DNA of 64,000 nucleotides from Naegleria gruberi. Taxonomy: Eukaryota. The notes beneath the pieces were generated by a model. It did no database searches and was not told where the DNA came from. It was given only the letters and a program-made list of their open reading frames with translations. This document shows, piece by piece, positions 43,111 through 64,000 of the stretch (its first letter is position 1; the number at the start of each line of letters is the position of its first letter). The position numbers were made by a program, and so were the translations under genes. The stretch is from assembly GCA_000004985.1 (NCBI GenBank), contig GG738853.1; one strand, written 5' to 3'.

Positions 43111-44299
43111 ATGTCTACTCCGACAATGACAGCAGAGTTTGACGATAGTCATTTAACTACGTTTAAATTTGGACAGTCTGATGCTCATATGCATGACTCA
43201 CTCGATCCTTCCCAATGGAAAATAACAGATTTTGAATTGTTAGAAATTATTGGTACTGGTACTTTTGGTAGTGTTAGATTAGTTAAACATAAACATACAC
43301 AACAATACTATGCTATGAAAATTATTAAAAAGTATGATGTAATTAGAATGAAACAAGTAGAACATATCATTAGTGAGAAGAATATTCTCTCTCAAGTTGA
43401 TCATCCTTTCATTGTTAGACTTTATAGAACATTCCAAGATGAAAATTATTTATTCATGATTATGGAATATGTGTGCGGAGGTGAATTGTTTTCACATTTG
43501 AGACGTGTTGGTAAATTCCCTAATGATGTTGCAAAGTTTTATGCTGCTGAAATTATTTTAGCTATGGAATATCTTCATATGAAGAATATTGTTTATCGTG
43601 ATTTGAAACCAGAAAATGTTTTATTAGATAATGATGGTCATGTAAAAATTACTGATTTTGGTTTTGCTAAGAAGGTTCTTGACCGTACGTGGACTTTATG
43701 TGGTACTCCTGAATATTTAGCGTAGGTTTTTATTAATCTCTTAATATTTAAATTACTCTTTAATCTCTTAATCATAATGATAATACTCTTAATCATTCTG
43801 ATAATCTAAATCATCTAATTATTTTATTATGAATAGTCCTGAAATTATTCAATCTAAGGGTCATGGTAAAGCTGTTGACTGGTGGGCATTAGGTATTCTT
43901 ATTTATGAAATGTTAGTTGGTTATCCACCATTCTTTGATGATTCACCTTTCAAAATTTATGAAAAGATTTTACAAGGAAAGGTTGAATTTCCAAGATTTA
44001 TGGATCCAATGGCTCGTGATTTAATTAAACGTCTCTTAACTACAGATAAGATGAAACGTTTGGGTAATTTGAAAGGAGGTGCTGCTGATATTAAGGAACA
44101 CAAATGGTTTAAGGGTGTTGATTGGGATGAATTATATAATAGACAAATTGCATCTCCAATTCCTGTCAAGATTAGTTTTGCAGGTGATTCTAGATACTTT
44201 GAAACTTATCCGGAATCTCAAGATCATTGTATTCACCACACTGGTACTCCACATCAACAATTATCTGCTGATGTTCAAGCTCTATTTGATGGTTTTTAA
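43111..44299 (+). CDS. cAMP-dependent protein kinase catalytic subunit (AGC kinase) (exons 43111..43721, 43837..44299)
   Basis: Kinase motifs [26 protein letters not shown] and GTPEYLA|PE are present. The donor is GC|GTAGGT at 43722 and the acceptor AG is at 43835-43836 (115-nt intron, phase 2 restoring GCT). The AGC tail has the terminal FDGF hydrophobic motif. Confidence 0.9.
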
Positions 44300-45977
44300 T
44301 TTTTATTAAATGTATGTGAGAATACTGTATATACATCAAATAAAGTTATACATATTGTCACTGTACTTTTACTAAACAAGGTTTTAAACACTTGTTTCCA
44401 TTCATTTGTAAATAATGATTGAATAGTTTTCAAATCAATAACAATGTCAATAAAACACCAAAATCTAATCCATTCACAACCCCAATCTAATTCAATTGGA
44501 ATTCTAATGACTTGTTCCCTTGTTAATGATGGTGGTGAGGTTGGTGATGGTGATTCATCATGATTTTTATCATTATTCATTGTTTCATCTCCATTTGTTG
44601 TAGCAGTAGTAGTTGAATCATTTCCATTCACCGTCATTGTATCATCATTATTTTCATTATAATAAGAATTATCAAATTCAATTGACCATCTAGATCTAAA
44701 ACCAATACTAAATAAATATAATTGTTCATAAAATTTTGAAGTCATGTAATAAAATAGAGTATTATAAAATTTTCCATACGATTGAAATAAACCTCCAACA
44801 GAATGTTCAGCAGTTGCAACTTGTAAATCAATGAAATAACGTAAAATTTTAGAAATTTGAACAAGAATATTTCTACACTTGTTAATTAAATGAATAATTC
44901 TATTCAATTTTGATAAATAATTCATATTATTAGAATTTTTATAATTATTTAAAATTCTCAATTCAGGTAAAAGTTCATTATCTAAAATAGGAGGTGGTGG
45001 TAATTCAACTTTAGAAAAAACTTCTTGTTGATCATAATATTCTTTCCATTTTTGTAAAAATACTTGTTGTGAATTTTCTGAAAAAGGAGTCCATAATAAA
45101 CCTCTTTTTGTTAAAGAAATATTAAAATCATTTAATAAATTTGATCTAATTTGTAAACTATATCCTTTTATAGAAGTAGAAATTCCATAAATTAATTTTT
45201 TAAAATTATGAAAATTCATAATTGATAAACTTAAATATAAATATCTTGCTAAATAAGGAATATAAAATTTTCTTCTTAACATTAATTTAGTAATAAAATC
45301 TTTAATTTTCATTTGATATCCAAAATTAGTAGATAATTTATATTTACCAAAAATAAAACCAATATAATTAATTAAAATTAAATATAATTTTGATTTTTCA
45401 TTAAAAGGTTTATGTAAATGTAATTTAAATATACCATATATATATTTCATATCTAAATATTTAAATAATTTTTTAAAATAATTTTTAAAATAATTTATAT
45501 TTTTTTCATTTAATTTAATTTTATATTTAAATGTTTCTCTATTTGTATAATTTTCATTTCCAATATTAGAATTAAATGTATTATAAAAGGAAGTATATTG
45601 ATTATATTCTTCTTCTTGTTCTCTTTGCATTTCTTCAATATCATCATCTTGATAATAAATATTATTTCCATCTTTGGTAATATTATATATATCATAATGA
45701 TATTCACTTCCAATTGAATATCCTATTTTTTTATCTAATTGAATAAAACTTTATATATTTTATAATAATATTTAAAAATTATATTTAATTAATATTAAAA
45801 TTATATTTAATTAATATTATATTTAAATTAAAAAAAAACATACTTTATAGGTATTTGTAAATTATGAGTAGGATAACATCTCATTGAAATATCAAATGTA
45901 GCATATTCTAAATCCCATGGATGTGTATCTTCATAAGAATCCCAATTTAATGATGCATTTAATTTATATATTTCCAT
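44296..45977 (-). CDS. very AT-rich protein of unknown function (exons 45977..45844, 45748..44296)
   Basis: Exon 1 (MEIYKLNASLNWDSYEDTHPWDLEYATFDISMRCYPTHNLQIPI) ends at AA|GTATGT (donor at 45843). The acceptor AG is at 45750-45749. The phase-2 join (AAT) continues FIQLDKKIGYSIG...EEMQREQ into ORF 44296..45630. The intron is 95 nt. I recognise no family. Confidence 0.5.
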
Positions 45978-46411
45978 TTTTTAATATTATTATTAATATT
46001 AATATATTATTATATTATTATTAGTATGTTATCAATTAGTTATATTGTTGAATTATGTTATTATATTGTTTGTTACATGAATTCCGAGAGTATGATCATT
46101 ATTTGTTGTTGTTGTTGTTGTTGTTGTAAATATAACAATAGAAGTGATGTTATTTTTTTCACGTATTAATGAAGGCTTGTTTCTAATTCAACATTATTAT
46201 CATCATAATAAAGTTTCAATGAATAATTTAAAGAAGAAATAAACATTGGAATTCAAATGTCCAAGTCTAGACTTGAGAATAATTGAATGGCCATTAGAAA
46301 GAATTTTCATGACATTATTCCCGCCATAAATTAAATCTACAGTTGTTTTATTCAAATATTAAAAAAAAAGTGTAAATAATTGAGGAGGGAAATTTTAAGA
46401 AAATAATAATA

Positions 46412-46687
46412 ATGGACAATCAAGTGTTGTATTCAGCAGAACAAATTCAAATTCCCAATGATTTAGGAGAAGTTCTTAAACAATATACAAAGGATGCTAT
46501 CAGAGCCTCACCAGCTGATTTGATCCGATGGAGTGCAAAGTAAGTATTATTATTCCATATAATCAATAATTTAGCCTTCCTTACATGAAACAGTTATTTT
46601 GCAACCAAGACTAATAAACCACTTCCATTCCCTAATGTTCCTCTCACTAACACTACCCCTACTAGTACTACTGCTCAAAGTAAATAA
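46412..46687 (+). CDS. small RIIa (PKA-RII dimerisation/docking)-domain protein; 3' exon structure unresolved
   Basis: Exon 1 (46412..46540) reads MDNQVLYSAEQIQIPNDLGEVLKQYTKDAIRASPADLIRWSAK, followed by GTAAGT. This matches the RIIa pattern IPxxLxxLLxxxTxxxxRxxPxDLxxFxxxYF. With the AG at 46592-46593, a canonical phase-0 join gives only LFCNQD then stop (46614). The attractive continuation YFATKTNKPLPFPNV... (to 46687) is offset by 1 nt. Confidence 0.5.
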
Positions 46688-46880
46688 TAGAAATATTAAT
46701 AGCAAAATGACGTTTGTTGCCAACTCACACAATGTAAATATCTCGAAAACATCTTCCTAATAATATATCATTGCCCAACAATGCATATTGTTCAATACAG
46801 CAAATAACTGTAATTGTCTTGCAAAACACGTATTGGTGATTTCATCATTCAATTTGAAAATAAAAATAGCAAACAAAAAA

Positions 46881-48453
46881 ATGAAAATATTTAAACTTTT
46901 AATTGTATTATTATTTTTGATTTCATCAATAGTACTTGTTGCTAATTGTTCAGATGCTACTTCAACTGCTGGTAGTGAAAATATAGAAATTAAAAGTAAA
47001 TTAAATGATCAACAAAATACATATACACAAGATTCATTATTGGGAAATGGTATTTTAACTGGAATTAAAAAGGATGGAACAATTGATAGTATTATTGCTC
47101 AATATAAACAATTAGATAATGAATATATTAAATCTAATAATATTGATAATGGTGATGAAAAGAAGGAAGATATTACAATTGAAAATCCATCAGTAACAAC
47201 TCCTACAACACCTACTACTACACCAACAACAACAACACCACCTATTGATATTACAACACCATCATTACCTAGTACTGTTAATAATCCAATTGATGAAAAA
47301 CCAAAAGATATTGAATTGCCACCATTGGAAGAAAAGAAATCATCAACTGAATCATCAAAACCAACAGTTGATACTCCAACAACAACAACAAAAACAACAA
47401 CAACTACTACTACAACTCCATTACAAGATAAACCTGGAAAGGAAGAAGAATCAGCTGCTGAACAAAAATTGAGAGAAGAAATTAGTAAACTTAAGGCTAA
47501 ACTTGAAGAAATTCAAAAGAAGGAACAAGAAAAGTCAACACCAACAGCACCAATTGAAAAACAAAATAAGCCTATTACAATTGAAAATCCATCACCAGTA
47601 ATAACTCCTACAACAACAACAACTCAACCAAAGGCTGAAAAATCAATTGAAACTACTAAACCATCTACAACTACTACTACTACACCTTCTAAACCATCTA
47701 CAACTACAACTACAACTATTCCATCTAAAATTGATAATAAGAGTAGTACTCCAAGTAAACAGACAACATCATCTACTACTAGTAAAACATCGACAACAAC
47801 AACAACTCCTAATACTACTACTAACAAATCAACAACAACAACTACACCAACAAACAAACAATCATCATCTACTACTAGTAGCAGTTCATCATCAACAAGT
47901 AAATCATCTTCCAAATCAAAGAATAAGTCTACAACAAGTAGTACAACAAGTAAGAATAAGACTAAACCATCAAGTACTTCTCCAACTACCAACAACAAAC
48001 AATCATCATCTGCTAGTACTACTTCTACAACTCCGACAACAAAAACTCCAACAACAACAACAACTCCAAGTAACAAACAATCATACTACCACTGGTTCTA
48101 CTACTACTACTTCCAATACTAATAAACCAAGTAGTACTACTTCTACAACAACAACTCCAAGTAACAAACAACCAATTCAACCTAATAAGAATACAGTTGT
48201 ACGTCCAACACTTAAAGAAGAAGAAGAAAAGAATAATGGAATATCACAAGTATTTATATTTGGATTTGGTATAATTCTATTTTTAGTAATTATTGCAATT
48301 TTCTTTTTATTTATGAGAAAGAGAAAACCAACATTAAAATATGAACCAGTTTCACAATATGAAAATGATTCAATTCAAAATAATGATAATTCCATTGTTG
48401 AATTAGATGATAAACATAAAGTAATTAATGAACCTGTTGATTTGGAAATTTAA
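46881..48453 (+). CDS. mucin-like Thr/Ser/Pro-rich type I membrane protein; apparent +1 frame change near 48084
   Basis: A signal peptide (MKIFKLLIVLLFLISSIVLVANC) is followed by long T/S/P tracts. The Thr-rich reading switches from the frame of ORF 46788..48122 to that of ORF 47647..48453 around CAATCAT|ACTACC. The latter ORF supplies a TM segment (VFIFGFGIILFLVIIAIFFLF) and a cytoplasmic tail. Confidence 0.6.
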
Positions 48454-48846
48454 ATAAATTCAAATATTATATATTACAATTATTATGTTATGTGTGTGTA
48501 TTTATTATTATTATAAAGTATTATTAATGGAGTGTGTGTATATTACAGTTAATCTAATATCAATGATTCAATCAAATAATTACATAAAAAAATTAACAAT
48601 AAAAAAAATGTCCAATCAACATGATTCCGATTCCAATTCATCATCATCATCATCTAAACAACAATTACATCATGATTCAAATAATTCAAATAATTCAAAT
48701 AATTCAAATAATATAATACAAATAATAATAATTCAAATATAAAAAAAACAAGATTTGAACGTGAAATTGAATCATTAACAAAACAAACGATTGAATTAGA
48801 AAATGTAGAAAATAAATTAAAACAATTATTTCCACAAGAATATGCA

Positions 48847-49299
48847 ATGAATAATTCAAACAAATTTGAAAATGATCAAATATTAAGACATCAAGATCCA
48901 ACTGTTAAATATTTTACTTTAATTGGAGGTTCAATTGGTGCAATTTCAAGTGCTTATTTACTTTATCAACCAATTGATAAATTTGGAAGATTATTTTTTA
49001 AACAATTTACTTCAAATTATAGAATTAGATATTATTTTACAATTCCAACTTTTACTTTTTTAACAATTACTATAAGTGGTATTTTATCAGGTTTATATCC
49101 ATATGGTACACATAGAATTATGAAATTTTTAAATAATCAATTTAATATTGATGTTAATGATAATTTTGATGATTTTTTAATTTCTGGTTTACCTTTAACT
49201 AAAAATGATTTACTTTCTCATTTAAATAAATTTAATAATAATAATAATAATAAATTAATTATTAATAATTTAATTATAATAAAATTAAAATTAAATTAA
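48847..49299 (+). CDS. small membrane protein, unknown function; may extend 5' to ATG 48608 across a frame change at 48712..48742
   Basis: ORF 48847..49299 has two or three hydrophobic segments. Its frame stays open upstream to 48712 (YNTNNNNSNIKKTRFEREIESLTKQTIELENVENKLKQLFPQEYAM). There it abuts ORF 48485..48742 (MSNQHDSDSNSSS... from 48608) in another frame. Confidence 0.45.
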   Translation: MNNSNKFENDQILRHQDPTVKYFTLIGGSIGAISSAYLLYQPIDKFGRLFFKQFTSNYRIRYYFTIPTFTFLTITISGILSGLYPYGTHRIMKFLNNQFNIDVNDNFDDFLISGLPLTKNDLLSHLNKFNNNNNNKLIINNLIIIKLKLN

Positions 49300-49319
49300 T
49301 ATTATGTTTAAAATTATTT

Positions 49320-50420
49320 TTATTTATTTAAATTAATATATTTAACATTTAATTCAATACCATTATTACTTTGATTTCTAAAAATGGAATTAAAATTATC
49401 ATTTTTTAAATTATTTGAATAATCAAATGCAATTCCCATACTTTCAGTACTAAAAGTATAACCAAATTCTAATTGATCATAATCAGTAACTTTACATGAT
49501 AAACATCCAATTTTTCTTTCATTTGTAAAATTAATTAAATTACCATAAATAGAAAATAAAGCTTGTTCCATTGGAATTTCAAATATTTTATCAACTAGAT
49601 AATTTGACATTTGATTTAACATGATATCTTCACCAATTCCACTAAAATTACTTGCAATTTGTATAAAATTATCATTATCACTATCTTGTACATATTTAGT
49701 ATCTGAATAACATCCACTTCCATATATAGAAGCTTCACCAATTCTACCTGAATATTTTAATGATATTCCACCACTACTAACACCTGATGATAATATTCCA
49801 TTATAATATATTATACATCCAACTGTATCATATNNNNNNNNNNNNNNNNNNNNNNNNNNNNNNNNNNNNNNNNNNNNNNNNNNATTATTTAAATTATTTA
49901 TATTATTATTACCATTTATATTATTATTATTAAAATTATAAATAGATGAAAAACATAAACATGCATCACATTCAACTAAACCATTTCTATTTAAATTACT
50001 ACCATATCCAGCATTTGTAAATGGTGAATTTTCTAAAATAGAAATAGCATATGAACATGCATTTAAACATTTTTTTATTTTTTCATTTTCATCATTTTTA
50101 TTTATAAATTTACTATTATTTAAATTATTTAAATTATTAAAATATTGATTAATAGTTTGTTGTATAGATTGTTTCATTAAATTTCTATATAAATTATTAT
50201 TATTAATAGAATGATATCCTGCTCCACAATGAACTGCAATAAAATATACATCATCTTCATCTTCATCATCTTTTAAATCATTATTTAAATCATTATTTAA
50301 ATTATTATATTCTATTATTTCATTATTATTATTATTATCTTGTTGTTGTTGAATAGATAAAGATGATGATGATGAATTATTCCGATCAACATGTTGATGA
50401 TGATTAACTTGTTCACTCAT
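49320..50420 (-). CDS. TASP1: taspase-1 / asparaginase-2 family Ntn-hydrolase (interrupted by an assembly gap)
   Basis: FIAVHCGAGYHS, NAGYGSNLNRNGLVECDA and YDTVGCIIYYNGILSSGVSSGGISLKYSGRIGEASIYGSGCY match the family. This includes the DTVG autoprocessing/nucleophile Thr motif. The likely start is MSEQVNHHQH at 50420. N-rich insertions are present. Confidence 0.75.
   Translation of the reverse strand: MSEQVNHHQHVDRNNSSSSSLSIQQQQDNNNNNEIIEYNNLNNDLNNDLKDDEDEDDVYFIAVHCGAGYHSINNNNLYRNLMKQSIQQTINQYFNNLNNLNNSKFINKNDENEKIKKCLNACSYAISILENSPFTNAGYGSNLNRNGLVECDACLCFSSIYNFNNNNINGNNNINNLNNXXXXXXXXXXXXXXXXXYDTVGCIIYYNGILSSGVSSGGISLKYSGRIGEASIYGSGCYSDTKYVQDSDNDNFIQIASNFSGIGEDIMLNQMSNYLVDKIFEIPMEQALFSIYGNLINFTNERKIGCLSCKVTDYDQLEFGYTFSTESMGIAFDYSNNLKNDNFNSIFRNQSNNGIELNVKYINLNK
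49834..49883. other. assembly gap (50 N)
   Basis: A run of exactly 50 n characters lies inside the taspase-like CDS. Confidence 0.99.
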
Positions 50421-50582
50421 TTTTTTAAAGTTTATAATAGAAAAAAACAAATTGTAACACACAACTATTTCAAATTTAATTTTATTACATTTTCAATACA
50501 TACAATACTTTTAATACATATGATTCAGATTACAAAATATATAAATAAATATATAAACACATAATAATAAATATATAAAATA

Positions 50583-51836
50583 TTATTGTAAAATATTATA
50601 CATTAATAATTCTAAAATATTTGTAATTAAAATAACATGTTTACAACTTTGTATATTTTTAGAATCACATACTAATAATGGTAATTGATAATTAATAGCT
50701 AATTCAATAGAATTATTTAATAAATTTAAATGATTATTATTTAAATATTTAATTAAATTATTTTCATTTTCATTATTAAAAGTATTTAATAACATTATTT
50801 CCATTACATCTAATTGTTCTTCATCATCTTTAAATTTACTACCAATTAATGAATTTGATTTTACTTTTAATCCATTTATAGATTCATTTGTATCTAATTT
50901 CCATATTGGTATATTTAATAAATTATTTAAATTTTCATTAAATAAATAAATTACATAAGTTTTACCTGAATATAAATTTGCTGAAAATATTGATTTTCTT
51001 GAATGTGGTGATTTTATACCACCATGATCTTGAAATGATATTTGTATATATTTACTATTATTATTATTATTATTATTACTATTTATAGAATTATTTAAAT
51101 TATTAAATTCAATTAAATTATTATTATTATTAATAAATAATTCAAATGATTTCATTACAATTCTAAAATCAATAGTTTGATCATATTTATTAAAATCTTG
51201 ATCAATTTTATCACAAATATTATTAACAAATTTAGATTTACCTGTTTTAGAATTACCTTTTACATGAATTCTAAAAAATAAATTAGTTAAATCATCTGAT
51301 CTATTATTAAATTGTGTTTTTGTAATTTCTTTAAATTTAAAATAATATTTTGTAATTGTTTGACATAAAATTCTTTCATTTTTTAAATTATTTAATTTTA
51401 AATTTTTAATTTTATCAGAATTAAATGGAAAATATAATATTCCAATTTCATTTTTTAATAAATATTTCCATATTTGATCACATGGTGTTTTTATTTCATT
51501 ATTTAAATTATTATTTAAAATAGATTGACCACAAATATATTCATACCAATCTTTATTTAACATTGATAATAATGTTAATTCATAAGTATTTAAAAATGAT
51601 ATTATTTCAAATGTCATTTCATGTGTTAAATCAAAATTATTATTAAATATAAATGAAATTGTTTTAATTGATGTACTTGTTGTTGTAGTTGTTGTACTTG
51701 TAGTTGTAGTAGTAGTTGTATTATTATCATTATTATCATTGTTATCATTGTTAATAGTAGTTGTATTATTATCAATTAAATGATGATCGGAAGGATCTTC
51801 TTGTTGATCAATAATAATATGATTATTGTTGATCAT
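50583..51836 (-). CDS. F-box-like protein with a divergent P-loop (small-GTPase-like) region
   Basis: The N-terminus has N/T-rich tracts. An F-box-like segment follows (LTHEMTFEIISFLNTYELTLLSMLNKDWYEYI), then a Walker-A-like KGNSKTGKSKF and a possible DxxG (QDHGG). The coding sequence is very AT-rich. Confidence 0.45.
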   Translation of the reverse strand: MINNNHIIIDQQEDPSDHHLIDNNTTTINNDNNDNNDNNTTTTTTTSTTTTTTSTSIKTISFIFNNNFDLTHEMTFEIISFLNTYELTLLSMLNKDWYEYICGQSILNNNLNNEIKTPCDQIWKYLLKNEIGILYFPFNSDKIKNLKLNNLKNERILCQTITKYYFKFKEITKTQFNNRSDDLTNLFFRIHVKGNSKTGKSKFVNNICDKIDQDFNKYDQTIDFRIVMKSFELFINNNNNLIEFNNLNNSINSNNNNNNNSKYIQISFQDHGGIKSPHSRKSIFSANLYSGKTYVIYLFNENLNNLLNIPIWKLDTNESINGLKVKSNSLIGSKFKDDEEQLDVMEIMLLNTFNNENENNLIKYLNNNHLNLLNNSIELAINYQLPLLVCDSKNIQSCKHVILITNILELLMYNILQ

Positions 51837-53308
51837 TTTTTTTTAATTTGATAGAGAAATGTGTGGATTGTATGAGTAGAAGAAATTGTACAAAGAATAA
51901 TAAGAACATGGAACAATTACATGTTCAGTGTTCAACATATCCTCAAAAGCATTTAAAGGAAAACAGCTGTTTTGTGACATCAATTGCTGGTGGTTTCTTG
52001 CATGGATTCGTATATAAGTGGCTCTTATGAGTCCTCAATCCATGATTCTGCTTATTGTTCCAACTGAACCAAAGAATAAGGATGTTAATCATTCAGTTGT
52101 AAATTACTGAAAAGTTTTCTGAATTGGAAGAACATTAAAAGGTCAAACATTTAGAAGATCAAATTCAAATTGAGAAAAAGATAAGAACAAGAAGGATAGA
52201 CAAGAGGAAGCCAGACATAAGAAGGATGTAGAAGACAGAAAGAAGAAGGAAGAGGAAGATCGTTTGAGAAAAGCCCAATTAGAAGAGGATGATTAGAAGA
52301 TGAAAGAAAGAGAAAAGCCTAAATTGAAGAAGAACGTAGGAGAAAGGCAGATTTGGAAGAGGAAAACAAGAAGAGCAACCTGCTCAAGAGGAAGAGGAAA
52401 AGAAAAAGGTTAAATGAGTGAGGTCATGAAAGATCTCCTTTCCAAGTCTGCAACAGAAGTACTCGTTATCAATCATTTGAAGGAATTAACGTCGATTACA
52501 AGGCCTCATTCATCATCATTTTTTGGAAAATACTTTAATAGCTTGGTTTTGTAAACTTTGGAGAGGATCGCAATTTTGGCGTCGATTTGATGTAAATGGA
52601 ACCACAAGGATTGAGCACAAATATTCGTTATGGTAAACAAAATCATTATGTTATCAAACAAACTAGCCGTTCCATTTTAAAATGTAGATTTCGTCTAGAT
52701 GGAACCACCAAAGGTGAGTCAACACGTGCCGATTTCACAACATATTACAATCGTTCCAAGCTGTTGGCCAATCGACAAATTAGCACATAATTTCATAATA
52801 GCGCAATATGATTATTTCACCTACCATTTGGACTACTCATAATTTATCCTTATAATAGAGTTACTTATCTTAACCACTTTGATTTTGTATTCTACTCTTC
52901 TGTTAAAAATATTTGATGATCCTTGGATTCTGTTACTGGTAGTACACTTACACTAAATACTTACGTTGTCTGTCCTGCATGTCTGTTCTGCGACCATTCT
53001 ATGAAGTTTCAAAATGAATTGTGTAAATAATATGCCAATGTCAGAAAAGCAAAGCAACAATTCGATATGTAAAGTTTAAAACAAAATTGAACGCATATGT
53101 ATTCAGAGATATGGTATCTTTAACAATCTTCAGTAGTTATTTTGTTTTACACACTTACACAATTTTGTAGATTCAGTAATGCATTTCTACTCACAAATGA
53201 GAACTGTACTGATTAACGAAGCTGACCCTCCAAACCAATAAAGAAAAATTGAATATTTTGTTTATTTTATTCCGAAAGTTCTAAGTCAATGGTTTTCCAT
53301 TTGGCCAA

Positions 53309-54415
53309 TCAGGCATCTTCATCTTCTTTATATTGAAAGTCTTTGTTGTGATCTTTTAATTGGTTCATTTCACTCAAGTATTTTGTTCCTTCATCACCAA
53401 TATAGTTGTTGTTAATATAAAGATACATTATTTCTTTCAATTCACTTATGTATTTAACTCCTTCATCTCTAATCTTATTGTAGGAAATATCAAGATGGGT
53501 CAATTGTTTCAATCCACTCAAATATTTAATTCCTTCATCACCAATGTCATTACAAGAAATATCAAGATCCATTAATTGTTTCAATTCACATAAATATTTA
53601 GCTCCCTCATCACCAATTTGATTGTTAGAAATATTAAGAAGTATTAAATGTTTTAATTCACTTAAATATTTTGCTCCTTCATTTCCAATTTGATTGTTAT
53701 TAATATAAAGATCAGTTAATTGTTTCAATTCTCCAATATATTTAGATCCTTCATCACCTATACGATTATCTTGAATATTAAGATAGGTCAATTGTTTTAA
53801 TTCACTTAAATATTTTGCTCCTTCATCATCAATATTATTTTTATCAATAATAAGAATGGTCAATTGTTTCAATTCACTTATATATTTTGATCCTTTAGCA
53901 CCAATATTATTTTTATCAATAATAAGAAAAGTTAATTGTTTCAATTCACTTAAATATTTAGCTCCATATTCAGAAATACCATTATTACGAATATCAAGAG
54001 TGGTCAATTGTTTCAATTCACTTATAAATCTAACACCCTCATCACCTATATAACTATCATAAATATGAAGTTTTTTTAATTGTTTCAATTCACTTAAATG
54101 ATTTAATGCTTCTCCTTCTTTAATTCTAATTTTAAGTTTTGTTAATGATTTCATCATTTTTAATTTTTTAACAGTATTAATAGTGCTGGCAGTAGTACTA
54201 ACATGAAGATTACAACATGTTGATAAAATAACATTCAACCACTGTTTAGATACCAATGTACAATTCAAGATAATAAAATTAAAATCATCAAAGAAGGAAA
54301 TTATTTCATATATTATATCATTATGAAATTTATAATCATTGTGTGACAAGTTCTCCATCCTTGTTTGAACCATGTTAGTTGAATGTTGTGTACACAATGT
54401 TGGGAGTTTTTCCAT
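53309..54415 (-). CDS. F-box + leucine-rich-repeat (RNI-like) protein
   Basis: The N-terminus is F-box-like (NDIIYEIISFFDDFNFIILNCTLVSKQWLNVI). About ten 24-aa repeats follow, of the form (L)xIxxNxIGDEGAKYLSELKQLT. Confidence 0.82.
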   Translation of the reverse strand: MEKLPTLCTQHSTNMVQTRMENLSHNDYKFHNDIIYEIISFFDDFNFIILNCTLVSKQWLNVILSTCCNLHVSTTASTINTVKKLKMMKSLTKLKIRIKEGEALNHLSELKQLKKLHIYDSYIGDEGVRFISELKQLTTLDIRNNGISEYGAKYLSELKQLTFLIIDKNNIGAKGSKYISELKQLTILIIDKNNIDDEGAKYLSELKQLTYLNIQDNRIGDEGSKYIGELKQLTDLYINNNQIGNEGAKYLSELKHLILLNISNNQIGDEGAKYLCELKQLMDLDISCNDIGDEGIKYLSGLKQLTHLDISYNKIRDEGVKYISELKEIMYLYINNNYIGDEGTKYLSEMNQLKDHNKDFQYKEDEDA

Positions 54416-55396: not shown

Positions 55397-57232
55397 ATGT
55401 TCAAATCAATTGCTCAACCAATTATCAAGAAGGCTAATCAAACAACACCAATTAAATCTGCTGTTGTTCAATCTAGATTCCTCAGCAAGGTTGTTAAAGA
55501 TGCCAAGACTGCTGTTCAAGATATTCCTGATGGTGCTACACTGTATGTATTAATATAATTTATTAATTTATTAATTTTTATAAATATATATTAATATTAA
55601 TATGATGATGATTGATCAATATGATGATGATATTACTATTATATTACAATCTATTATCTAAACACTCCCATAACCACTAAACTATAATCTAAAATCACAC
55701 CAATCTACTATTTAAACTACTTATCTACACTTAATCACACCAATCTAAATCACCAATCTACAATCTACAATCTACACTAAATCTACAATCTAAACACAAT
55801 GTAAAAACTCTCTTAATATTATTTAAATAGTTGTGTTGGTGGATTTGGTTTATCTGGTACACCACAAAAATTGATTGAAGCCTTGAGAGATTTGGGTAGT
55901 AAAAATTTAACAATTGTTTCAAATAATTGTGGTGTTGATGATTGGGGATTAGGATTATTATTATCTAATGGACAAATTAAAAGAATGGTTTCATCCTATG
56001 TTGGTGAAAATGCAACATTTGAAAAATTATATTTAGGAGGACATTTAGAAGTTGAATTACTTCCACAAGGTACATTAGCTGAAAAGTTAAGAGCTGGTGG
56101 TGCTGGTATTCCTGCATTCTTTACACCTACTGCTGTTGGTACTGTTATTCAAGAAGGTGGTTTTGCTATTAAATTTAAACCAAATTCAAAGGAAATTGAA
56201 ATTGCTTCTAAACCAAGAGAAGTTAGAGAATTTAATGGTAGAAAATATTTAATGGAAGAATGGATTAGAGGTGATTTTGCTTTAATTAAGGGATGGAAAG
56301 CTGATGAACATGGTAATGTTGTTTTTAGAAGAACTGCTAGAAATTTCAATCCAATGTGTGGTCAAGCTGGTAAAATTTGTATTGTTGAAGTTGAAGAATT
56401 AGTTAAACCAGGTGAAATTGATCCAGATCATGTTCATTTACCAGGTGTTTTTGTTGATAGAATTTATTTAGCTGAACCATATGAAAAGAGAATTGAAAAG
56501 AGAACTCTTTCTAAACCTACTGATGCTAATTCATCATCATCATCTTCTACTTCTTCAAATGATCCATCAAAATGGGATACACGTGAACGTATTGTTAGAA
56601 GAACTGCATTAGAATTCCAAGATGGAATGTATGTTAATTTAGGTATTGGTATTCCAACACTTGCATCCAATCATTTACCAAAAGGTGTTACCATTACTTT
56701 ACAATCTGAAAATGGTATTTTAGGTATGGGACCATATCCAACACCTGGTAATGAACATGCTGATTTGATTAATGCAGGTAAAGAAACAATTACAACATTA
56801 CCTGGATCATCAACATTTTCTTCATCTGATTCATTTGGTATTATTAGAGGTGGTCATATTGATTTGACTGTTTTGGGTGCTTTACAAGTATCTGAAAGTG
56901 GTGATTTAGCCAATTGGATTATTCCAGGTAAAATGGTTAAAGGTATGGGTGGTGCTATGGATTTAGTTTCATCTGGTTCACGTGTTGTTGTTACAATGGA
57001 ACATACTGCTAAGGGTAATTCTCCAAAGATTTTGAAATCATGTTCTTTACCTTTAACTGGTAAACAAGTTGTTAATAGAATTATTACTGAATTGGCTGTA
57101 TTTGATGTTACTCCACAAGGTTTAGTTTTAATTGAACATTTCCCTGGTGTTACTGTTGATGAAATTAAATCAAAGACTGAAGCTAACTTTATTGTTTCTG
57201 ATCAATTGAAGGAAATGCAATTTGTTCAATAA
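55397..57232 (+). CDS. OXCT1: succinyl-CoA:3-ketoacid CoA-transferase (SCOT) (exons 55397..55542, 55831..57232)
   Basis: Exon 1 is a mitochondrial-presequence-like [15 protein letters not shown]...VQDIPDGAT, ending at CT|GTATGT. The acceptor AG is at 55829-55830 (288-nt intron), and phase 2 restores CTT. The sequence continues [18 protein letters not shown]... and is collinear with human OXCT1 throughout (SSYVGEN, SENG, GGAMDLV). Confidence 0.93.
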
Positions 57233-57313: not shown

Positions 57314-58447
57314 TTATTGAATTGGAATGTATTCTTCTTCATGTTGTTGAGGTGGATGTTGTAGTGATGGAATAATTAGTGTTGAAATTGACTTGTTATT
57401 TTTATAATAATAAAATTGAATAGCAATAATAAAACTAAATAATAAAGTAAAAATACTTCCTAAAATGTAAGGAAATGTTGAAACTACATCCATTGTATTT
57501 GTAATATAAAATAATATTATACTTATTAAATACAATACTTGTGTTAATGTATCAATAATAAACATTAATAACTATAAATATATTTAATAATTAATCATAA
57601 TTAAATTAATTTTGTTAAAAATAATTAAATAAATAAATTTAAAACAAATTATTTCAAAACTTACAGATAAACCTTCAACACTCTTCTTTTTATAATTTTT
57701 AATAATTTGTGGAATGTATGCAATAATATAACAAGTACATGATATATATGAAATTATAATTCCAATTATATTTGCAATTTCATTATCATTATTAATAATT
57801 GAAGTATTACATAATTTTACAGTACTGCTACCATCACCACTACTACTACTAATAAATATATTAAAAAATAATAATAAAACAAATAAAGAAATAATCCAAT
57901 GTGAATTTAATTGATTATATTTTAATTGATTAAATTTTTTTAAAATAAAATTAAAAAATAAAATAAATAATTTTTCATAATAACAATATTGAGTAATAAT
58001 TAAAATATCCATAAAAACATAATAAATAGCTAAATATAATTGAGTAGGTAATTGATTTGTTAAAATACAACCAATTAAATTAGTAACATCACCAATCATC
58101 CAAATAAGGAATAAATAAATTGATAAACCTTTTGCAGATTTAAATACAAAATTTTTAATAACTTGTGGAAATAAACTAATCATACTTGTTAATATACTTA
58201 ATAATCCTAATATATAACTTGTTATTTCATTTGTTTCATAAAAACATTCTCTAAATATTAATGCAATAAATTCATTATAATGATTATTTCCTTTTTTAGT
58301 AGGTAAACATTGACATAAAAATGATGAAAATAATATTTCTTGATTATTTTCATTATTATTATTTAATAAAAATGTTTCATTATTAAATAATATAGGTAAT
58401 GATGATGATGATGATGAATAAAATGATAAAAATTGTTTACTATTCAT
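57314..58447 (-). CDS. PQ-loop repeat transporter (PQLC2/Ypq-like) (exons 58447..57665, 57571..57314)
   Basis: Two PQ-loops are present: LFPQVIKNFVFKSAKGLSIYLFLIWMIGDVTNLIG and YIPQIIKNYKKKSVEGLSVS. The donor TCT|GTAAGT is at 57664 and the acceptor TATAG is at 57573-57572, in phase 0 (93-nt intron). The likely start is MNSKQF at 58447. Confidence 0.8.
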
Positions 58448-58497
58448 TTCAGTGCATTTTTTTAAAAAAATCTTTACAATAAAATTATTTTTTATTA

Positions 58498-59004
58498 TCA
58501 TAATATTATCATCAATATTATCATTAACATATTATTATTATTAGATATAATATTATTATTATTTTCAATATTAATAGTAAAATCATCATGATAATAAGGA
58601 CCAAATAAATCTCTAAATAAAGCATATGAACATAATTTAGTAGTATAATATGTTTTTAAATAAAAATTAGATAATGGTAATGATATTTGATAAAATAAAA
58701 ATCCAAATGTTAATCCAGTTGATATTTGTGTTAGAGTATTAATATATTTATTAGATATCTTTTTAAATGATTTTTGAAATATAAATAAAGATGAAAATGT
58801 TCCGATTATTGAAAATGGATATTTAATTAATGTTGAATATCCATCTTGTGGTATTTTAATCATTAATGATGTTAAATAGGCTCTTTTTGTATATTTATAT
58901 TTACTATTATTATTATTATTATTATTATTGGATGATGATGATGGTATTGTTGTTGTTATTGATGATGATTTGAGTTGTTGTTGTGTAGTTGAATTATTTT
59001 CCAT
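58498..59004 (-). CDS. small hydrophobic protein, unknown function (could instead belong to the neighbouring gene model)
   Basis: 168-aa ORF with an N/S-rich N-terminus and two or three hydrophobic segments. It lies 55 bp downstream of the PDE stop and 50 bp upstream of the PQ-loop ATG. Confidence 0.35.
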   Translation of the reverse strand: MENNSTTQQQLKSSSITTTIPSSSSNNNNNNNNSKYKYTKRAYLTSLMIKIPQDGYSTLIKYPFSIIGTFSSLFIFQKSFKKISNKYINTLTQISTGLTFGFLFYQISLPLSNFYLKTYYTTKLCSYALFRDLFGPYYHDDFTINIENNNNIISNNNNMLMIILMIIL

Positions 59005-59059
59005 TTTTTATTATTGAATTATGAAAAGATAAATTGATTGTGTGTGTTTATTATTTATA

Positions 59060-61939
59060 TTATAAATCTTCTTCTTCAAGAGGATCTGAATGTTTATGTT
59101 CTGTTGTTGTGGTATTGTGATTAGAATGTTCAAGACTTGAATCATTCTTTTCCTCATTATCATTATGAGGTGGTTGTTCAATGGTAATATCTTGATGTTT
59201 TGTATCCTCAGCCTTAACAATGTGATGTTCCTTCTTTGTATCATCAATTTCATGAACATCATTGAGAGGACTATCATCTCTATTAGTTTTAATAATTTTA
59301 TAATTCTCTTCATATTGAATAATATTTAAACCAGTTTGTTGATGAACATGTTCCAACACTAAAGGTAAAGTTAATTGAGTTGATTTTGTTAAATCTTGCA
59401 TTGTTAAATGATTGGATTGAATTTGTTTCTTAATTAATTCAGTTTCTTCAGGTTTAAAATCAAATAATAAATTAAATAGAGGCATTACAATAAATTCAAT
59501 AAAACCAGTTTGACATTTTGGTACATTTTGAGTATTTCTATCCATAAAAGGTGAAATATCAATTTTTAAATTTCTTTCAGTATCACCCTGATTATAAAAT
59601 TCAGTCATTACTCTATTAACCCATTTACCATAAACTTGATATGATTTTGTTGGATTTGAAACATCTGCACATTTAATTATTACTTTTAATAAGGCTAATA
59701 AACATTCCTTTCTTTCAATACTAAACTTTTCCTTATTAAATATATCATTGGATTTAATTTGACCAACAATTAAGAAATGTTGACTTATATCTGTTGCTAA
59801 TATCATTTCAACTATTAATTCTCTTAAATATTCATATTGATTACTTGACATATTTACAAATATATTAAATTCTTCCTTTCCTAGTATTTTAAATAAATTA
59901 TAACAATGAAAATTTTCTAAAATTGAACGATCATTAAACATGATTGCCTTTTCACTTCTTGTTTTCTTTTCAAATAAATTTGTAACTCCTGGATGACAAA
60001 CATCATGAGCTAAACATGCAACAACTAATGCTAATATATCTAATGGTACTAGATTGAAATTTAAATTATTTTCTAATGTAAAATTATTAAATTGAATAGA
60101 TTGAGATGATTGTGACTGTGATTGTGTTGATTGTGATTGAGATTGAGGTGAATGAGGTGAAGATGGACTTGTATGTGAAAAACATTTAACATATAAACTA
60201 ATAGCAGTTTGAACAACATCAGTTGCATGACAATTATTATGATATGGATTATTAAAATAATTAGATTCTACTTGTTTTAAGAATTTCTTCAAAGTACCAA
60301 TTGGTATATTCAATGGTCCAATTAAATCAAATGTTTGAAATATATATAAACATGTATAATATAATGGTTCACCTTCTGCAATCTTATTAAATTCAAATAC
60401 ATCAAATTTAAAATAATCCAATAAATTTTCTTTTAAATATTCCTTAACTTTCAATGGAATATCATCCTTAGGTACAATTGCTAATGAATCTTTGGCACTC
60501 TTTCTACCTATTGAACTCATTTCTTTTAAATAATTTGTAAATACTAATGCTTTAGTATATGCCTTAATACGTTTCTTCCATGATAAATCTGTACTATCTT
60601 CAACAAGTGATCCATGTAATACTTCAGATGATAACCATTTTTGTGTTTCAGAATCATGTTCATCTGATATTAAAATATCTTTAACAGTTGATTTAACTCC
60701 CATATTATGTGATGATGCTTTTGATACTAATAAACTTGCTAATGGTGATTTTGTTGAATTGGTGGCTGTTGGATCTGTTAAAATTAATTCAATTCTTGAA
60801 ACTAATTGTCTCACTTCATCATTTTCATGAGCTTTTAAAGAAGATATCAATTCAGTTAAATTACTACTAGTAGCACCACCTTTAGAATGATGATCATTAG
60901 ATACACTTGCTGTTATTGGTTGTGATGGTGGAGCTAAATCTTCTGGTGTAATTGGAGTATGTGGATCATCTTCAATTTTCTTAATATCATCACCCAGAAA
61001 TCCATCCTCTTCTTCATTAACATCTTGATTTGATGATCTTTGAGAAGATAAATGTAAAACTTCAACAGTTAAATTCTTTTCAGATTCTTGTTTTAATTTT
61101 AATTCCAAACTATGTTGTCTTTCTAAATCATCCTTCTTTTCAGAATCAAATTTTTGTTTCTGCAATTTTGAATATTTTGTAATCATCATAAAAGTATCTC
61201 TAATGTTAATATCAATATTATGTTTTAGAGGATATAAATGTAATGCAATTGTAATAACTTTTCCAACATCATTTTTCAATTTTTGGAAAACTTCAATTGA
61301 TTCATCTGGTTGAGGTTCAATTGTTAATTCTGAATTAAGAACACAATTTTGAACTGATAGAATAAATAAAGATAATTGTTCCTTTTCATTCGATGGACTA
61401 TCTTCAAATACCATAAATTTATCTTGATGAATACTTTCAGCATCTCTAATATGATAATAAAACTTATCTAAACCATCAGATAGAGAATAAATAACAATAT
61501 TCTTATCTACATTTGAAAATACACAAAACATAAAATCACTCTCCATTAATTGATGAGTGTTATAAGCAATTACCTCATCCATTCTATATAATACTCTCAT
61601 TAAATCTGTTTCCTTATCTTGATGTAAATCTTTACATGTTATATATCTTAGTGATTTTCCTTTTGGTATTTCAACTATAACAGAAGATTCAAAGGCTTCA
61701 TTGGATGAAGTGGTATCTTCCTTCTTTTCTTCTGCTTCATCCTTTATATTTGAAATTGGTTGAACAAGTGTAGATTGTGCTTTTTCATCCCTTGTTGATC
61801 GTTCTTGATGTGCTATTGTTGTAGTTGCTGATTTCCCCACATCTTGTGGTACATCATTGTCTTTATAACGATCATGACTATTTTGCTGAGGTTGAACACT
61901 ATTTGTTGTTGCACATCCAGCTGCATTACCCATTTTCAA
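59060..61939 (-). CDS. class I 3',5'-cyclic-nucleotide phosphodiesterase
   Basis: The C-terminal catalytic domain has YHNNCHATDVVQTA, LAHDVCHPGVTN, ILATDISQHF and IKCADVSNPTK (the HD metal-binding set). The N-terminal region is long and unassigned. Confidence 0.88.
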   Translation of the reverse strand: MKMGNAAGCATTNSVQPQQNSHDRYKDNDVPQDVGKSATTTIAHQERSTRDEKAQSTLVQPISNIKDEAEEKKEDTTSSNEAFESSVIVEIPKGKSLRYITCKDLHQDKETDLMRVLYRMDEVIAYNTHQLMESDFMFCVFSNVDKNIVIYSLSDGLDKFYYHIRDAESIHQDKFMVFEDSPSNEKEQLSLFILSVQNCVLNSELTIEPQPDESIEVFQKLKNDVGKVITIALHLYPLKHNIDINIRDTFMMITKYSKLQKQKFDSEKKDDLERQHSLELKLKQESEKNLTVEVLHLSSQRSSNQDVNEEEDGFLGDDIKKIEDDPHTPITPEDLAPPSQPITASVSNDHHSKGGATSSNLTELISSLKAHENDEVRQLVSRIELILTDPTATNSTKSPLASLLVSKASSHNMGVKSTVKDILISDEHDSETQKWLSSEVLHGSLVEDSTDLSWKKRIKAYTKALVFTNYLKEMSSIGRKSAKDSLAIVPKDDIPLKVKEYLKENLLDYFKFDVFEFNKIAEGEPLYYTCLYIFQTFDLIGPLNIPIGTLKKFLKQVESNYFNNPYHNNCHATDVVQTAISLYVKCFSHTSPSSPHSPQSQSQSTQSQSQSSQSIQFNNFTLENNLNFNLVPLDILALVVACLAHDVCHPGVTNLFEKKTRSEKAIMFNDRSILENFHCYNLFKILGKEEFNIFVNMSSNQYEYLRELIVEMILATDISQHFLIVGQIKSNDIFNKEKFSIERKECLLALLKVIIKCADVSNPTKSYQVYGKWVNRVMTEFYNQGDTERNLKIDISPFMDRNTQNVPKCQTGFIEFIVMPLFNLLFDFKPEETELIKKQIQSNHLTMQDLTKSTQLTLPLVLEHVHQQTGLNIIQYEENYKIIKTNRDDSPLNDVHEIDDTKKEHHIVKAEDTKHQDITIEQPPHNDNEEKNDSSLEHSNHNTTTTEHKHSDPLEEEDL

Positions 61940-62635
61940 ACTATTAAAACCTAGAGTGAGTTAGAAGTTATATATTATTTTGATGATAATAATGTTGATA
62001 ATATACAGTGGTTGCAATACGTTTGAATCCACTGAAAGAAGAGACTCTGCAAAGCCTTTAAACTTGTTTTTTTAATCTCTACATATTTGTAACGATTTGT
62101 AGTTTGTGGGCGGGAAAAAATACTTTACTGTTTTGGATTGTCCACCTTGTACGTATTGGTCATTGAGAATCTATAAGGTACAACAATGTTTGAAATAGTC
62201 ATGGATTGGTTTGTCTCTCTAATCACATCTAGTTGTCACATCGATGAAGATCACTTGAACTTGCAACATTTAAAGAATGAAATCTCTCTATGGTTTTGGA
62301 TATTTAGCTAATTGATATAAACTCTCCAATTAATAACAACTGTTTAATAAATATCTGATGATGAGGTGGTACGTGGTTAATACTTGTTGATCTCAAAATT
62401 AAGAAAGGAGAGAGAAAATTATCAAATAATAAGTAGTGTTAAAGTTGTAAATGACCGTTTATATATTACACGAGTAATACCCATACCTAATTTGAAATTA
62501 TGAAAATATGATTAATAAGGTAATTTCTTAATAAATCAATATATAAAAAAATTAAAGAATTTTTAAGGTTCTTCCCCTCACTGATTATTTTCCATAATAT
62601 ATTCATCTATCATCATCATCACACTTAATAATTAA

Positions 62636-64000
62636 ATGATCAAAATATTAAATCCTCTATTACTATGCCTATTAATATTATTATTTCTAATTAATAATAT
62701 TAAATGTGCATCATTTACAACAAGTTATTCAATGAAAACATGTTCATTATCAAATTCATTATTATCCAATTCTAATAGTGATATATTTACATCTACATCT
62801 ACTACATCATCTGGATGTTCCTCATCATCAACATTTCAAATTGCCATTAAATTTGGAGATGAAGGAGTTCCACGTGATTTAAAACTCTCACTCTCAAAAG
62901 ATGATAAAATTCAAAATAGTTTAGATTCAACTGATTTTTATTCATTATCTAATGATATTATTATTAAAATAGAAAGAACTGATTTAAAAGTATCATATCC
63001 ATTAACTTTTATTAAAACATTAAAAAATTCATATGAAACTATTGAAACAAGTGTTAAAGATTGTAATAATTTAAATAATAATAATATGGATGAATATTCT
63101 AAATGTTGTGGACCCTATTATTATAATGATAATTCAAATTCAAATTTAAATTCAAATAAATATTATAATATTAGAAAATTAAATTATAATACTACCAATT
63201 ATAATCAATATGAAATTGGAAAATCACAATTACAATATTATATTCAATTTACAATACAACAATTAGATTTAAAATATAGTTTAATGTTATCAAATAATCA
63301 AAAATCATTAATTTTTAAAGGAATTAAAATTTCAATTGAAAATGATTTTTTAAAATTAACAAATTTAGATTTTTATTATTTAACACATTATTATATTATA
63401 CCTGAAAATCAATTAGATGGTTTTGTAATTCCTAAAAATTTAATTAATAAAGATATAAATAAAATTGGAATTACTAAAGAAATTTATAAAAATAATATTA
63501 ATTGTAATGATGAATTAGGTGATATAGTTACCATATTAGGAAATAATAATATATATGATCAATTTTATAGTTTTAGATCTAAATTTTTATTAAATTTAAT
63601 TGATGATTGTTATTTTAAAGATAAAAATCAAAATTTAATTAATTTTAATTGTGTAAAAACTATTAAAAATACAATTTTAATTAATTTACCATTTGGAGAT
63701 TCAAATTCATTTTCATTATTAAAATTAAAATCAAATCCAAATATAGTATCAAAAGGTTCTTTTAAAATTGATAATTATTTAATTTCTATTTATTTAGATA
63801 TTTTTAATAATATTGAATCTGATGGTTTAGTTGAAATTACTTTAATTGATTGTTGTATTTTACAAAATAATAATTTTATTTGTAATGTATGTTTTTTTAT
63901 TAATATATTTTTAATTTAATTATTTTTATATTTTATTTAATATTTTTATTTAATTATTAAATATAGAAAACATCAAGTCAATTTACTCAAAAAAGAATAT
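62636..64000 (+). CDS. secreted/membrane protein with HAP2/GCS1-like ectodomain features; CDS probably continues past the window (exon 62636..63886, then 63967..>64000)
   Basis: A signal peptide (MIKILNPLLLCLLILLFLINNIKCA) is present. Segments parallel the HAP2 ectodomain by eye: IKIERTDLKVSYPLTFIK...ETSVKDC; YEIGKSQLQYYIQFTIQ; YYIIPEN...INKIGITKEIYKNNINC. AAT|GTATGT at 63887 and TATAG at 63965-63966 suggest an 80-nt intron. Confidence 0.45.

Follow-up and report, generated by a model that had tools for sequence, protein, structure and literature searches.

HAP2 is the most widespread gamete fusogen, and it serves as the main molecular marker when hidden sex is argued for in Naegleria and other protists. 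Structures of canonical HAP2 have been determined from Chlamydomonas (5MF1, 6E18 and 6DBS), Arabidopsis (5OW3), T. cruzi (5OW4) and C. merolae (7S0K). Divergent second HAP2-related genes, namely Dictyostelium HgrB, Plasmodium HAP2p and Leishmania HAP2-2, have been reported to be needed for mating (PMC4910948, PMC10630298), and each of them is a divergent extra HAP2-like gene beside a canonical one. Here we describe a HAP2-like gene at the 3' end of a 64,000-nucleotide stretch of Naegleria gruberi contig GG738853.1 (assembly GCA_000004985.1), the whole of which is called the window. A reading of the sequence without database searches, hereafter the original prediction, had proposed a candidate HAP2/GCS1-like gamete fusogen at this place. 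Our analyses indicated that the gene fits best into the known theme of second, divergent HAP2-related genes, as a further variant of it, and that the portion in the window is quite probably the 5' part of a functional gene coding for a type I membrane glycoprotein of the HAP2/GCS1 (fusexin) superfamily, a second and divergent paralogue.

The gene starts with an ATG at position 62636 of the plus strand, from which the frame stays open for 417 codons up to a GTATGT donor at 63887; under the local base composition the chance probability of 417 codons without a stop is ~4.5e-20. The predicted splice (...FICN/KTSSQF...) retains the conserved cysteine C416 and then continues like the homologues in the family alignment. 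As the original prediction had stated, the gene leaves the window at its end, with exon 2 in frame up to base 64000. The intact open reading frame (ORF) and the canonical splice signals indicate that the gene is real. The features along it, all on the plus strand, are as follows (aa, amino acids of the exon 1 product).

62636..63886, plus strand: exon 1 of the HAP2-like gene, codons 1-417, an intact ORF.
62636..62710, plus strand: predicted signal peptide MIKILNPLLLCLLILLFLINNIKCA, aa 1-25.
62744..62815, plus strand: S/T/N-rich low-complexity insertion, aa 37-60, between C36 and C61, not found in the homologues.
62987..63037, plus strand: KVSYPLTFIKTLKNSYE block (KVSYPLTF...NSYE), aa 118-134, placed by hhalign and the family alignment.
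63062..63172, plus strand: putative domain-II tip or membrane-contact region, aa 143-179.
63188..63196, plus strand: N185-T-T sequon, within the family motif N.T.YN, just past the tip.
63209..63259, plus strand: YEIGKSQLQYYIQFTIQ block, aa 192-208, aligned with Y.GYELGAASLQFEIAITV of Chlamydomonas HAP2.
63416..63505, plus strand: DGFVIPKNLINKDINKIGITKEIYKNNINC, aa 261-290, counterpart of the HAP2-GCS1 motif.
63554..63577, plus strand: YDQFYSFR, aa 307-314, a family signature with invariant Q309 and F313.
63794..63856, plus strand: LDIFNNIESDGLVEITLIDCC, aa 387-407, with the signature FLD..N..D..G..EV.P..CC and invariant N391, C406 and C407.
63887..63966, plus strand: predicted intron 1, 80 nt, GTATGT...ATAG, phase 0.
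63967..64000, plus strand: start of exon 2, phase 0, in frame, reading KTSSQFTQKRI to the window end.

The exon 1 product has a hydrophobic, signal-like start, abundant N, I, L, S and K residues, and 13 cysteines. Residues 1-25 may serve as a signal peptide: a hydrophobic core is followed by a small-residue site, residues 7-21 are helical in the AlphaFold2 model described below, and an equivalent segment is present in those homologues of the family alignment whose N-termini are complete. Three N/S-rich inserts special to N. gruberi occupy aa 37-60, 144-153 and 162-176. The one at 162-176 lies within the putative membrane-contact tip, with YYY and YY on its flanks. The tip region carries C143, the pair C157-C158 (in KCCGPYY, aa 156-162), a tyrosine cluster (YYY...YY) and the N/S-rich insert seen only in N. 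gruberi. N185, which is kept in at least 90% of the sequences in the family alignment, is probably a conserved N-glycosylation site. By fold match, exon 1 would code for the predicted signal peptide and, of a class II fusogen ectodomain, the N-terminal two-thirds (domains I/II).

Exhaustive phmmer comparison of the exon 1 product against 1.84 billion cluster representatives gave 11 matches at an expectation value (E) of 1e-3 or below, one of which (P0007) covers a low-complexity stretch only. The relatives found are KAL9651225.1 of Willaertia magna (E 2e-38, 32% identity), FDP41_011345 / XP_044567128.1 of N. fowleri (E 8e-21), KAJ3423586.1 and KAJ6234649.1 of Anaeramoeba flamelloides (E 6.4e-7 for their representative P0009), KAL6066032.1 of Balamuthia mandrillaris (E 2.6e-6), the transcript-derived EP00761_P010576 of Pharyngomonas kirbyi (E 2.6e-5), and several proteins from environmental and Logan assemblies (E 5e-16 to 4e-6). 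The members are annotated as hypothetical, save one Anaeramoeba entry that is named a GCS1/HAP2 domain protein in UniProt. No N. gruberi protein was among these matches, the best identity in any of them being 32%, and no protein at least 50% identical to the exon 1 product was found in a collection of 15 billion sequences that includes the N. gruberi proteome. Since that proteome was searched and returned no match, at least exon 1 is absent from it, and the public N. gruberi annotation apparently lacks the gene, or at least this exon. Three word-index searches for homologues gave almost nothing because low-complexity words dominated. The first did not give even the self-match, and the third, masked for low complexity and run with a segment of the neighbouring phosphodiesterase gene appended, did not bring up an annotated neighbour.

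Profile comparisons revealed that the window protein belongs to a conserved, uncharacterised, short-tip HAP2-like subfamily. A hidden Markov model (HMM) built from 10 homologues with the window sequence left out recovered the window protein at 201.8 bits (E 4.4e-61), and the best of 500 shuffled sequences reached 6.3 bits. Identity between the window protein and the other members is 18-31% in the family alignment. Residues Q209, C290, Q309, F313, C325, C339, N391, C406 and C407 are invariant in that alignment, which includes the window sequence, so that their presence there follows by definition. The signatures shared by the members are Y.LT....NAYE, KCC, N.T.YN, EGFLVP, INKIGI, YDQF..FR, LEL, KLFG.P and FLD..N..G..EV.P..CC. 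Full-length members have 640-810 residues, with the NKIG block near residue 240-280, and show, in order, a signal peptide, an ectodomain of ~450 aa, a Cys-rich EGF-like stem, one transmembrane helix and a basic tail.

From profile comparison, D. discoideum DDB_G0290351 (776 aa; chromosome 5, CM000154.2: 3890601-3893277) is a clear member of this subfamily (hhalign Prob 99.8%, E 2.9e-28, 459 columns). It is annotated as a hypothetical protein, has no Pfam match and is not mentioned in the literature searched. We considered whether it might be HgrB and rejected this, the gene identifier and the size being different (hgrB is DDB_G0281923, ~1650 aa); nor is it hgrA (DDB_G0276069). DDB_G0290351 would be a third HAP2-related gene of Dictyostelium besides hgrA and hgrB. 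The subfamily is thus distributed over Heterolobosea (Naegleria, Willaertia and Pharyngomonas), Anaeramoeba and Amoebozoa (Balamuthia and Dictyostelium).

The link to HAP2 is weak from the single sequence and clear at the level of the family. The canonical sequence used for comparison is the 399-aa representative of the HAP2 orthogroup OG0000563 in a Naegleria pangenome supplement (PMC9928731), which is either a Naegleria protein or the Tetrahymena HAP2 whose name it bears. It is canonical in every respect that was compared, with GFCCSC, ECDKIGVGY, 260 bits on the Pfam profile PF10699 (HAP2-GCS1) and matches to HAP2 crystal structures at E 1e-27 to 1e-41. BLASTP aligned the window protein with it collinearly over 273 columns at 20% identity, with E 0.018. 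The family consensus scored 50.4 bits (E 1.8e-13) on PF10699, whose gathering score is 27.4 bits, with consensus residues 133-451 on profile positions 153-489 of 515; among the members, P0008 alone reached 43.8 bits, above the gathering score, and P0005 scored 20.2 bits. The family aligned by hhalign with the 399-aa representative at Prob 82.9% (E 9e-6), and with a three-species HAP2 alignment, composed of that representative and the T. cruzi and Chlamydomonas HAP2 fragments read from PDB alignments, at Prob 92.0% (E 6.6e-7) over 225 collinear columns, spanning the N-terminal Cys to the QL/QF..R block. Against PDB sequences, phmmer of the fragment found nothing relevant, and the family profile found T. 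cruzi HAP2 only, together with a transmembrane-region match, at a non-significant E of 1.2 with collinear motifs. At the profile level the subfamily is homologous to HAP2.

Alignment of the conserved blocks revealed that the four by which the original prediction had recognised HAP2 are all in place: the early cysteine pair (C36...C61), the KVSYPLTF...NSYE block, the YEIG...LQ block and the NKIG...Y...C block. The block at aa 118-134 is the counterpart of the YPL...[K/N]P.E strand of canonical HAP2 and of the family motif Y.LT....NAYE. The block at aa 261-290 corresponds to ...G.ECDKIGVGY..F......C, with the first Cys changed to Ile and with C290 invariant in the family, and YDQFYSFR aligns with the (C)L..QLEDLR segment. 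The subfamily thus resembles canonical HAP2 in the collinear order N-terminal C...C, YPL, CC, YE.G..LQ, NKIG...C and QL/QF..R, and, judged from the homologues, in its type I membrane topology and Cys-rich stem. It differs from canonical HAP2 in that identity in structural alignments is ~11-13% and in that the fragment is not seen by Pfam.

Structure prediction placed the protein in the same superfamily. Single-sequence AlphaFold of the fragment was uninformative, with a predicted local distance difference test score (pLDDT) of 35.8, while AlphaFold2 run on the 417-aa fragment with an 11-sequence alignment gave a mostly beta model with a mean pLDDT of 76.2 and a predicted template modelling score of 0.59. 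The pLDDT is below 50 at residues 38-62, around the N-terminal S/T/N-rich insertion, and falls at 147-150 and 170-172, within the putative tip. Foldseek comparison of the model with the PDB gave HAP2 ectodomains as all of the best eight matches (Arabidopsis 5OW3, C. merolae 7S0K, Chlamydomonas 6DBS/5MF1/6E18; E 1.5e-12 to 5e-10), and this fold evidence assigns the protein to the class II fusogen superfamily with HAP2 as its closest kin, the predicted fold of domains I/II being HAP2-like. Together with the 50.4 bits of the family consensus and the hhalign probability of 92.0%, this structural comparison supports the HAP2-like assignment, which the original prediction had left to be judged by the Pfam profile and by the class II fold. 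With the relatives included, neither of the outcomes named there as refuting it, no significant HMM match and a predicted structure lacking class II architecture, was obtained.

The next Foldseek matches were hantavirus and phlebovirus Gc, Atlas virus Env, flavivirus E, alphavirus E1, archaeal Fsx1 and EFF-1. These raise the possibility that the gene codes for a class II Env of an endogenous virus or retroelement, comparable to Atlas virus or to the origin proposed for EFF-1, that has spread horizontally among amoebae; the patchy taxonomic distribution centred on amoebae is in line with such an origin, as is the similarity of the model to bunyavirus Gc, Atlas Env and many RNA-virus glycoproteins (Foldseek E 1e-9 to 1e-11). 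The structural scores of viral class II proteins (bunyavirus Gc, flavivirus E and alphavirus E1), EFF-1 and Fusexin1 are, however, clearly below those of HAP2, and none of these has sequence-profile similarity to the window protein. We regard a viral envelope origin as highly improbable. An origin from giant viruses was also considered and found no support, since a viral structure library returned matches to RNA-virus class II glycoproteins only and no giant-virus proteins.

The original prediction had described the gene as lacking the canonical Cys-rich segment. Alignment by hhalign placed the KCC pair on the FCC of GFCCxC (GFCCSC), so this segment is cut down and not missing. The shortening affects both sides of the pair. 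From the YE block to CC there are ~21 residues in the subfamily against ~41 in canonical HAP2, and from CC to the YE.G block there are 18-33 against ~41-56 in the three canonical sequences; the N. gruberi count on this second side is 33, fairly described by the earlier estimate of ~40 aa. With 3 tip cysteines against ~7, the domain-II tip of the subfamily is roughly halved. Of the GFCCxC and C[D/N]K[IV]G cysteine signatures only the CC pair is retained, and neither full signature is present. Directly before NKIG, all family members have I, V, P, T or L and never Cys. The Ile that the original prediction had noticed in N. gruberi where C[D/N]KIG has its Cys is therefore a mark of the subfamily and not of decay. 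Likewise, the short tip and the lost cysteines are common to three eukaryotic supergroups, and they therefore define the subfamily and do not reflect decay of the N. gruberi gene.

These results bear on the possibility that the locus is a decaying pseudogene or a relic HAP2 copy. The very low GC content at third codon positions (GC3, 3.4%), the N-rich inserts at aa 37-60, 144-153 and 162-176, the lost cysteines and the fact that no annotated N. gruberi protein matches could all be read in this way. Yet a stop-free ORF of 417 codons is hardly expected by chance (P ~4.5e-20), the family-invariant residues are all kept, the splice signals are intact with exon 2 in frame, and the cysteines that appear lost are absent in every member over three supergroups, which makes their absence ancestral to the subfamily; moreover, the nearby ORF 50583-51836 is similarly AT-biased, with a GC3 of 3.6%. 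Decay of the gene is accordingly very improbable, and of the two descriptions offered in the original prediction, a divergent or a degenerate paralogue, the former is supported and the latter is unlikely.

A different question is whether a protein of HAP2-like class II fold with such a tip fuses membranes at all. It might act instead in surface recognition or adhesion, or as a regulatory partner such as a chaperone or receptor of the canonical HAP2. The drastically short tip, the loss of most of the cysteines that shape the fusion loop and the polar N/S-rich insert in the N. gruberi tip would suit such a role, and the way in which Dictyostelium HgrB acts beside HgrA is likewise unresolved. Against it, most members keep an aromatic pair ([YF][FY]) past CC, which in N. 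gruberi takes the form GPYYY...KYY around the polar insert, with low model confidence at 147-150 and 170-172; the parts usual in fusogens, namely a stem, a transmembrane helix and a basic tail, are retained in the homologues; and very short loops are enough for membrane fusion by viral class II proteins. We consider a non-fusogenic role unlikely, and aa 143-179 remain a candidate fusion loop.

Canonical HAP2 has been reported elsewhere in the genome, which answers the earlier suggestion to look for a second, canonical gene: N. gruberi EFC41606.1 and N. fowleri KAF0982544.1/KAF0982545.1 belong to the canonical HAP2 orthogroup OG0000563 (PMC9928731). The window gene is therefore a second, divergent paralogue, and its N. 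fowleri relative is a separate protein, KAF0982415.1. The co-occurrence of the subfamily with canonical HAP2 in Naegleria and Dictyostelium makes it a paralogue, not an orthologue, of HAP2. A second 'HAP2' orthogroup, OG0010275, has one N. gruberi member (PMC9928731), which could be a downstream partial model of the window gene.

If the gene is a functional second HAP2-like fusogen, its action can be sketched from the class II fusogens. The protein would be displayed on the cell surface as a type I protein, like HAP2; the aromatic tip of domain II would insert into the partner membrane; and trimerisation would follow, in which domain III and the stem fold back and the membranes are drawn together. 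In the subfamily, the beta scaffold of HAP2 domains I/II would be kept together with the NKIG block, the tip being cut down and bearing an aromatic patch. By analogy with the second paralogues of Plasmodium, Leishmania and Dictyostelium, the most likely setting would be the fusion of mating cells, with or alongside canonical HAP2.

Several points weigh against this interpretation. To our knowledge, sex has never been observed in Naegleria, and the function of every family member is putative. The signature Cys motifs are reduced: GFCCxC has lost its third Cys, the tip cysteines downstream are absent, and CNKIG is without its Cys. The tip may therefore not work as a fusion loop, and in N. gruberi it has a polar N/S-rich insert as well. 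In the Pfam check proposed in the original prediction, and in contrast to the family consensus, the exon 1 fragment, which is without the C-terminal third of the PF10699 profile region, gave no PF10699 match at E<=10, whether or not the three low-complexity inserts were removed, and the family members other than P0008 and P0005 also gave none. Domain III, the stem and the anchor, which all full-length homologues have, would in the N. gruberi gene lie past base 64000. The GC3 of 3.4% in exon 1 (17% GC overall) suggests low expression or relaxed codon selection. Finally, the AlphaFold2 model rests on a shallow alignment of 11 sequences, and the training data of the network probably included at least 5MF1, the earliest HAP2 structure, which was released in 2017.

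The comparison with HgrB, HAP2p and HAP2-2 is one of theme, and no sequence evidence linking the subfamily to them was obtained, none of their sequences having been compared. HgrB has ~1650 aa, with the HAP2 motif at 496-556 and the transmembrane segment at 1586-1608, against 640-810 aa in the subfamily, whose Dictyostelium member is DDB_G0290351. Compared with its uncharacterised homologues, the N. gruberi copy has the same signatures and the same short tip but carries extra N/S-rich inserts. Going beyond the single gene, the subfamily might represent an ancient, unrecognised second HAP2 clade in Discoba, Metamonada and Amoebozoa, of early-eukaryote origin or spread from amoeba to amoeba, and acting as a partner or an alternative cell-cell fusogen; we put this forward tentatively, as a possibility that we rather doubt. 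Were it true, Naegleria would have a two-fusogen mating system and Dictyostelium a third HAP2-related gene.

With the preferred reading of a second, functional paralogue, N. gruberi carries a second HAP2-fold gene that is invisible to routine domain scans and, for exon 1 at least, apparently unannotated. Being unseen by Pfam and missing from the annotation, such genes would lead surveys of 'sex genes' based on Pfam or on annotated proteomes to undercount fusogens. The stripped-down tip would amount to a natural experiment on the minimal fusion-loop structure of a class II fusogen. Since D. discoideum, in which knockouts and mating assays are routine, carries DDB_G0290351, the function of the subfamily is directly testable.

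Analysis of the gene neighbourhoods showed no synteny of the window gene with the Willaertia, N. fowleri or Dictyostelium loci, and no further copy of the family was found among ORFs of at least 120 aa in the window between 43.5 and 52.5 kb. On Willaertia magna JBEGDK010000073.1, a TALE homeodomain gene (PF05920, 169 aa; ...TEKQITNWFINNRGR) at L001:12660-13169 (plus strand) lies on the same strand and 461 bp downstream of the HAP2-like gene (L001:10001-12199). No homeodomain neighbour was found beside the HAP2-like gene at the N. fowleri and Dictyostelium loci, and no homeobox motif was found anywhere within the 64-kb window. The pairing of a fusogen-like gene with a small homeodomain gene in Willaertia is reminiscent of gene clusters for mating type or the zygote programme, among them the mat locus of Dictyostelium and GSP1/GSM1 of Chlamydomonas.

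Upstream of the HAP2-like gene, the window has ordinary genes.

53312-54415, minus strand: leucine-rich-repeat protein, upstream of the HAP2-like gene.
55397-55542 and 55831-57229, plus strand: CoA transferase, the spliced model being identical to XP_002680449.1.
57587-59004, minus strand: PQ-loop protein, upstream of the HAP2-like gene.
59063-61933, minus strand: class I cyclic-nucleotide phosphodiesterase, transcribed in the direction away from the HAP2-like gene.

The ORF at 14864-16240 (minus strand) is identical to XP_002680588.1 (NAEGRDRAFT_57217). The exact matches of this ORF and of the CoA transferase to N. gruberi (strain NEG-M, Heterolobosea) proteins exclude a dictyostelid source of the window, which its AT-rich, N-rich character had suggested at first. 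Exact look-ups found no protein record equal to the phosphodiesterase ORF, the two PQ-loop ORFs or the leucine-rich-repeat ORF, and nine start variants of the phosphodiesterase (eight alternative ATG starts and the full TTG ORF) were not in the protein collection.

Base composition along the window revealed two low-GC blocks, at 44000-52000 and 58000-64000, with GC fractions of 0.18-0.22 against ~0.30-0.34 elsewhere, the HAP2-like gene lying in the second. ORFs of the low-GC blocks have a GC3 of ~3-8% and long N-rich tracts, as in 50583-51836 and 44296-45630 (both minus strand), and gave no Pfam match. An assembly gap of 50 N at 49834-49883 lies inside the ORF 49320-50462 (minus strand), which consequently contains X residues. 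At 46878-48453 (plus strand) an ORF codes for a Thr/Ser/Pro-rich, mucin-like secreted protein with a signal peptide, while a frame that overlaps it has a transmembrane-like segment at its end; the two probably belong to one gene for a surface glycoprotein, either spliced or frameshifted. Further upstream, at 37354-40356 (plus strand), a protein of 1000 aa with Myb and DIRP domains resembles LIN-9/ALY of the DREAM cell-cycle complex.

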